Assembly: GCF_003019035.1 (NCBI RefSeq) | Contig: NZ_CP027447.1 | Origin: Escherichia coli | GTDB lineage: Bacteria; Pseudomonadota; Gammaproteobacteria; Enterobacterales; Enterobacteriaceae | DNA: 64,000 bases | Strand: one strand, 5' to 3' | Shown here: piece after piece, positions 50,443-50,554 of the stretch | Layout of the letters: every line of letters starts with the position of its first letter | Position numbering within the stretch: the stretch's first letter is position 1 | Notes under the pieces: model-generated | The model's database searches: none | Seen by the model: the letters and a program-made list of their open reading frames with translations, nothing else | What the model was told of the DNA's origin: nothing | Made by a program: the position numbers and the translations under genes

Positions 50443-50554
50443 CCTCTGCACCTGGGTCAACTGATACGGTGCTTTGGCCGTGACAATGCTCGTAAAGATT
50501 GCCACCAGGGCGAAGGAAGAAATGACTTCGCCTCCCGTATCTGGAAAGGTGTAC
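50443..50554 (+). promoter_or_regulatory. Molybdenum cofactor (Moco) riboswitch in the moaA 5' leader
   Basis: Sequence CCUCUGCACCUGGGUCAACUGAUACGGUGC...GGAAAGGUGUAC immediately upstream of the moaA ATG matches the Moco RNA motif as I recall it; boundaries approximate. Confidence 0.7.

Follow-up and report, generated by a model that had tools for sequence, protein, structure and literature searches.

The molybdenum cofactor riboswitch of the Escherichia coli moaA leader: extent, structure and regulatory context

Introduction

The 5′ end of the Escherichia coli moaABCDE operon raises the question of what kind of RNA precedes moaA, how far it extends, and by which route it would lower expression when molybdenum cofactor (Moco) is plentiful. 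We address this question in a stretch of 64,000 nucleotides from contig NZ_CP027447.1 (hereafter the window), for which a first-pass annotation had proposed a Moco riboswitch leader at 50443-50554. The E. coli moaA leader carries little weight as a discovery, its riboswitch class having been founded on this experimentally studied RNA, and the value of finding it here is that of a positive control. Our analysis covers family membership, structure and covariation, the placement of the Shine-Dalgarno (SD) sequence and AUG, and operon context; the Moco response, the OFF polarity and the effects of CsrA and Rho are taken from the literature.

In the published work, induction of Moco synthesis leads to repression via the E. 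coli leader, and translational fusions driven by lacUV5 show this regulation (PMC2408646). Disruption of the P3 stem abolishes repression and a compensatory mutation restores it, and tungstate cannot replace molybdate in E. coli repression (PMC2408646). Derepression is seen in moaA, mogA, modC and moeA knockouts and not in a mobA knockout (Regulski et al.). Translation of moaA is activated by CsrA, which has two binding sites in the aptamer (PMC7652899), and moaA has a Rho-dependent 3′ end, with fusion expression more than 2-fold higher in the rhoR66S background (PMC7815308).

A full-length Moco motif that overlaps the start of moaA

A cmscan search of the window against Rfam places RF01055, the Molybdenum/Tungsten riboswitch aptamer or Moco RNA motif, on the + strand at 50423-50567, with a score of 103.4 bits (gathering threshold 36) and an E-value of 5.7e-26. 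The match spans the model from end to end (1-135 of 135) over 145 nt. This is the scan that the first-pass annotation had named as the check on its claim of a Moco motif in the moaA leader, and the claim is borne out over the full length of the model. RF01055 was the sole match in a permissive Rfam scan of 49000-52000, and a scan of the whole 64 kb at the gathering threshold gave no second RF01055 match.

The extent first proposed needs correction at both ends. The span 50443-50554 lies inside the element and holds its core (112 of 145 nt) but is 33 nt too short, with 20 nt missing at the 5′ end and 13 nt at the 3′ end. What it leaves out is the 5′ strand of P1 (50425-50439) together with the part of the P1 3′ strand (50555-50561) that overlaps the moaA start and first codons. 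The fuller extent, which we take for the aptamer with its built-in expression platform, coincides exactly with the feature annotated by RefSeq/PGAP as "molybdenum cofactor riboswitch" in NZ_CP033850.1 (equivalent to 50423-50567 here).

Conservation within the species is nearly complete. The 551 bases of 50150-50700 are shared at 100% identity with several complete E. coli chromosomes, including NZ_CP033850.1; the region is matched in 5424 of 5426 complete E. coli genomes, and 5396 of the 5424 with a match carry the 145-nt element at 99% identity or more. Base 50423 differs from that of some strains, and one K-12 derivative aligns only from base 2. For the moaA leader region as a whole, 2 of the 5426 complete genomes give no match, and two matches are on plasmids.

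With little room for doubt, we identify the element as the E. coli moaA Moco riboswitch, a leader OFF switch for feedback repression by the end product. It is real, ordinary and already annotated by standard pipelines. Compared with the Moco RNA motif of Regulski et al. (2008), of which E. coli moaA is the founding representative, it is the same element, sharing the P1-P5 architecture, the GAAA tetraloop on P4, the presence of P3, an SD sequence inside P1/P5 and a site upstream of moaABCDE.

The expression platform lies within the aptamer

Per-nucleotide structure was obtained by projecting the Rfam consensus structure onto the E. coli sequence, in which 34 of the 41 model pairs are standard and all five stems, P1 to P5, can be drawn (all features here are on the + strand). 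P1 is formed by a 5′ strand at 50425-50439 with 50548-50561, and its pairs covary among the 61 matches listed from the homologue search described below. In the Rfam alignment, the P2 hairpin pairs 50442-50458 with 50463-50478 around a U/C-rich internal loop; compensatory changes occur in 14 of its 14 pairs among the matches listed. The P3 hairpin (50480-50484 with 50501-50505), which also covaries, has 4 standard pairs and one A.C mismatch. P4 (50508-50518 with 50523-50533) is capped by the GAAA tetraloop at 50519-50522, and the P5 mini-hairpin joins CC at 50534-50535 to GG at 50543-50544 across a 7-nt loop.

The translation signals of moaA fall within these helices. The SD region, GGAAAGGUG at 50543-50551, runs from the 3′ half of P5 through the AAA junction into the inner 3′ strand of P1, and the start codon (50555-50557) sits in an internal loop of P1 that is closed by three more pairs. 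No intrinsic terminator was found after the aptamer; the sole terminator-like match, at 50143-50156, lies within the divergent yvcK coding region and is irrelevant here. With the SD and AUG inside helices and no terminator downstream, the expression platform is the aptamer itself, an arrangement that Regulski et al. described for E. coli, and the placement of the two signals fits the published OFF switch acting on translation.

Since P3 is present, the element belongs to the Moco class rather than to the proposed tungsten-cofactor class, from which it is distinguished by this stem (Regulski 2008, PMC2408646). The P3-lacking variants of the motif, proposed as Tuco/Wco riboswitches, share the core junction, P1, P2, P4, P5 and the GGAAAGG sequence; unlike them, the E. 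coli element has P3 (50480-50505) and, according to the literature, does not respond to tungstate.

At the tetraloop-receptor position, E. coli has CCUGGG (50451-50456) and UACGG (50465-50469) where the consensus has CCUAAG and UAUGG, so that the C-G pairs and the U/A are retained, the AA platform is replaced by GG, and the GAAA loop is kept. This variant is common to E. coli, E. albertii and Citrobacter; counting the canonical receptor with a strict regular expression (CCTAAG/TATGG) was too narrow an approach to inform the comparison. As a separate observation, the moaA riboswitch of Citrobacter sp. FP75 carries a 24-nt self-complementary insertion, AATGTACTCGACGTATGACGAGTA, in the 5′ strand of P1 (L073:1705-1728) and is otherwise near-identical.

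Covariation among homologues

We scanned the genomes of 100,044 species with the DNA pattern AGGG-N14-26-CCTCCC-N6-GGAAAGG, which gave at least 120 loci, and built a covariance model from the E. coli, E. albertii and Citrobacter sequences with the Rfam-derived structure. This model returns at least 61 matches, namely 60 homologues and the E. coli sequence itself; one doubtful match (from Leptobacterium, 25.7 bits) and one partial one (L075) are kept in the counts, and the result is unaffected by them. Homologues among the matches listed come from Vibrio, Aliivibrio, Aeromonas, Psychromonas, Kangiella, Aliidiomarina and Parashewanella, as well as from MAGs of Deltaproteobacteria, Bacillota, Chloroflexota, Actinomycetota, Acidobacteriota and others. 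The riboswitch is syntenic before moaA in other gamma-proteobacteria.

Across the 61 matches listed, 90.1% of paired cells hold standard pairs, a share that drops to 34-45% if the 3′ partners are displaced by 1-3 columns, and 34 of the 41 pairs show compensatory, both-side changes, with none of 500 shuffles reaching the observed pairing values; these figures are to be read with the homologue alignment having been fitted to the model structure. The search pattern left no freedom in P5, whose invariance follows from it, or in the three outermost pairs of P4; the covariation signal comes from P1, P2, P3 and the inner part of P4, which were free to vary. GAAA caps P4 in 55 of the 61 matches listed, and the P3 columns are gapped in roughly half of them (28-37 gaps per P3 pair).

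Two arrangements downstream of the aptamer can be seen among the matches listed. In 27 of the 61, a long ORF has its start codon 5-11 nt after GGAAAGG, and these include all 16 of the gamma-proteobacterial moaA-type leaders (E. coli counted), whose ORFs of 324-331 codons are MoaA-sized. In about 20 others, the aptamer is instead followed by a T-run within 90 nt. A single aptamer type with two kinds of platform is typical of riboswitches.

One set of pattern matches was set aside. Those from an uncultured Dehalococcoidia MAG (OY282442.1; L078 onward) are chance matches, and the five loci that were tested (L078-L082) gave no covariance-model match. The dozens of copies in this MAG (L078-L117) belong to a G+C-rich repeat of about 180 nt, ACTCATCTCCCGCGAGAGCGGG...GGGAAAGGGC..., which is a dispersed repeat family without a Moco motif.

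The homologues also bear on whether the RF01055 match might be a chance resemblance or a decayed, non-functional remnant. Such a reading could draw on single-sequence folding, in which the minimum free energy (MFE) of the leader is not significantly better than that of shuffled sequences (z-score -1.57). Against it stand the E-value over the full model, the near-invariance among E. coli genomes (at least 99% identity in 5396 of the 5424 with a match), the synteny before moaA in other gamma-proteobacteria, and the experimental demonstration of regulation by the E. coli sequence itself (PMC2408646). The full-length score, the strain conservation and the covariation together refute this reading, to which we give practically no credence.

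Operon context and promoter-level control

The element ends 13 nt inside moaA on the same strand, and the genes that follow are those of Moco synthesis: moaA (50555-51544, with its ATG at 50555), moaB (51566-52078), moaC (52081-52566), moaD (52559-52804) and moaE (52806-53258), all on the + strand. The regulated operon thus runs from 50555 to 53258 according to the annotation of a 99% identical record and NCBIfam equivalog matches with E-values of 1e-48 to 1e-110. MoaA-E, YvcK, ModE and ModA were confirmed on translations of the window at NCBIfam equivalog cut-offs. Upstream of the riboswitch lies the divergent yvcK/ybhK (annotation of NZ_CP033850.1). The first-pass statement that the leader precedes moaABCDE is confirmed by these equivalog matches and the RefSeq annotation, with moaA to moaE all downstream on the same strand.

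The molybdate-transport genes are likewise where they had been reported. The NCBIfam match for modE is at 27684-28472 on the − strand; modA begins at 28917, modB follows, and modC ends at 31440. The start of the riboswitch is 21.5 kb from the start of modA, which agrees with the earlier figure of about 22 kb to modABC; modE and modABC as a group are 19-22 kb upstream of the element. The same annotation had held that both layers of molybdate and Moco control are represented in the window; this stands as regards the presence of modE and modABC, and we refine it with a candidate ModE site at moaA itself.

That site emerged from a search with CGNTATATA-N6-TATATANCG, which we take to be the ModE-operator consensus of the literature. 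With up to 3 mismatches allowed, the 64 kb contains exactly two sites where 0.08 would be expected: 28874-28897, immediately before modA, and the palindrome CGCTATATACATGATTACATAGCG at 50356-50379 (+ strand) in the moaA promoter region. The latter has one mismatch to the consensus and lies 44 nt upstream of the riboswitch, so that both control layers would meet at moaA itself.

These features can be set against the two published promoters of the operon, of which S1 is activated by ModE and S2 is FNR-dependent (PMC2408646). An FNR-like site, ATGAT-GTAT-ATCAA, is present at 50292-50305 (+ strand) upstream of the distal promoter, with one mismatch to TTGAT-N4-ATCAA. The pattern is statistically weak alone (6 matches in the window against 2.5 expected), and the site is consistent, as a sequence match, with the published S2 promoter. 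For the proximal promoter, a −10-like hexamer, TAGTAT, can be read at 50413-50418 (+ strand). The published leader, 131 nt from S1 to the moaA AUG, "precisely encompasses" the Moco motif (PMC2408646), and this distance would put the S1 transcript start at about 50424, just 3′ of TAGTAT. No consensus sigma-70 promoter was found in 50100-50700, a result that does not speak against S1 and S2 because both are activator-dependent. Taken together, about 270 bp at moaA would hold three stacked layers of control, with FNR and ModE acting at two promoters ahead of the Moco-responsive leader.

Output of the switch

In the mechanism that we propose, a cis-acting 5′ leader RNA starting at about 50424 would fold into P1-P5 around a conserved junction. 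When Moco is plentiful, the closed aptamer would be stabilised and ribosome loading blocked, and moaABCDE expression would fall. This switch would act downstream of two activator-dependent promoters, one answering to ModE and molybdate and the other to FNR and anaerobiosis. CsrA would act inside the aptamer as an activator, and premature Rho-dependent termination would be a likely secondary output. The leader holds exactly two GGA motifs, one in P4 (50515) and one in the SD (50543), and these are probably the two CsrA sites.

The weight given to Rho could be greater than this. Rather than occlusion of translation, the main output in E. coli could be premature Rho-dependent termination within the leader or the first part of moaA, as the Rho-dependent 3′ end at moaA, the more than 2-fold rise of the fusion in rhoR66S (PMC7815308) and the lack of an intrinsic terminator after the aptamer might suggest. 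We consider this possible but unlikely: the SD and AUG are physically within the aptamer helices, and the fusions that show regulation are translational ones driven by lacUV5 (PMC2408646). Rho termination is moreover an expected consequence of blocked translation, which makes it an added layer on translational occlusion rather than an alternative to it.

A comparable arrangement is found in the E. coli thiM TPP riboswitch. Both are OFF switches that sequester the SD of a biosynthetic gene in response to the cofactor, without an intrinsic terminator, and a computational study proposed kinetic control for moaA and thiM alike (PMC3280964). The thiM riboswitch differs in having an unrelated aptamer fold and ligand, and the moaA SD belongs to the conserved core of the aptamer rather than to a separate expression platform.

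What the leader senses has been approached in the literature by genetics. The instability of the cofactor has kept direct binding of Moco to the leader from being shown (PMC2408646), and the exact regulating metabolite is described as still unidentified in a 2024 paper (PMC10845959). We infer that Moco binds the leader RNA directly. The question of ligand binding is general to the riboswitch class rather than specific to the moaA locus, and the window is of no help with it.

It could be argued from the same papers that the RNA is conserved and structured but is not the Moco sensor, the cofactor being read instead by an unidentified Moco-binding protein or by CsrA alone. CsrA does bind within the aptamer (PMC7652899), and the predicted ground-state fold, described below, occludes the SD without ligand. 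This explanation is very improbable in our judgement. The covarying motif spans many phyla (Proteobacteria, Bacillota, Chloroflexota, Actinomycetota and others) and occurs with two platforms, one embedded in the ribosome-binding site and one terminator-like, which together are a hallmark of a self-contained aptamer; CsrA is largely confined to some lineages, and no protein factor was found for the 131-nt region (PMC2408646).

A predicted alternative fold of the complete leader

Nearest-neighbour folding of the full 145 nt gives an MFE of -42 kcal/mol, compared with -26.6 for the Rfam structure. Single-sequence MFE was dropped as a criterion for structure, as the MFE structure is not the family fold and its z-score is only -1.57. 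Aptamers with tertiary contacts and non-canonical pairs are routinely mispredicted by folding.

The predictions change with the length of the transcript. For transcripts growing from 50424, the MFE structure contains P2, P3, P4 and inner P1 as long as the 3′ end lies no further than 50553; at 50561 a different fold, one that lacks P2, has become the most stable. In this alternative, UGCACCU (50447-50453) is predicted to pair with AGGUGUA (50547-50553) in the SD region, and AGCC (50441-50444) with GGCU (50557-50560) at the start codon. The partner of the SD is then CACCU at 50449-50453, so that the SD would be hidden in the alternative fold too, and folding alone leaves the ON state unexplained.

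The predicted flip agrees with several published observations, as far as a folding model can be compared with them. In-line probing of the ligand-free 138 moaA RNA could not be fitted to P2 (PMC2408646), DMS-MaP in vitro found two or more conformations, and kinetic control has been proposed as noted above. A tentative and rather doubtful extension is that the full-length leader rests in the stabler alternative fold, with a kinetic decision made co-transcriptionally, both end states translationally closed, and CsrA needed to open the SD. If this were true, the element would not be a simple two-state ligand switch but "default OFF, protein-opened". The idea is partly in print in Quarta et al. 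(2012) and Patterson-Fortin et al. (2013), to the extent that these are reported in a review of CsrA (PMC7652899).

Other features of the window

Beyond the moa operon, an extra ORF for a 234-aa membrane protein is present at 54244-54948 (+ strand) between ybhL and ybhM. Its product shares 26-28% identity with each of the two flanking Bax inhibitor-1/YccA family proteins. The ORF falls within a segment of about 710 bp that E. coli NZ_CP033850.1 lacks, and on this basis we regard it as a strain-variable third paralogue. Another Rfam match in the window is the CpoB/ybgF intercistronic thermometer at 13788-13926 (142 bits). It is followed by a cluster of seven tRNA genes at 14853-15653, where a match to RtT RNA (14860-15028, 60.6 bits) overlaps the first tRNA and its spacer.
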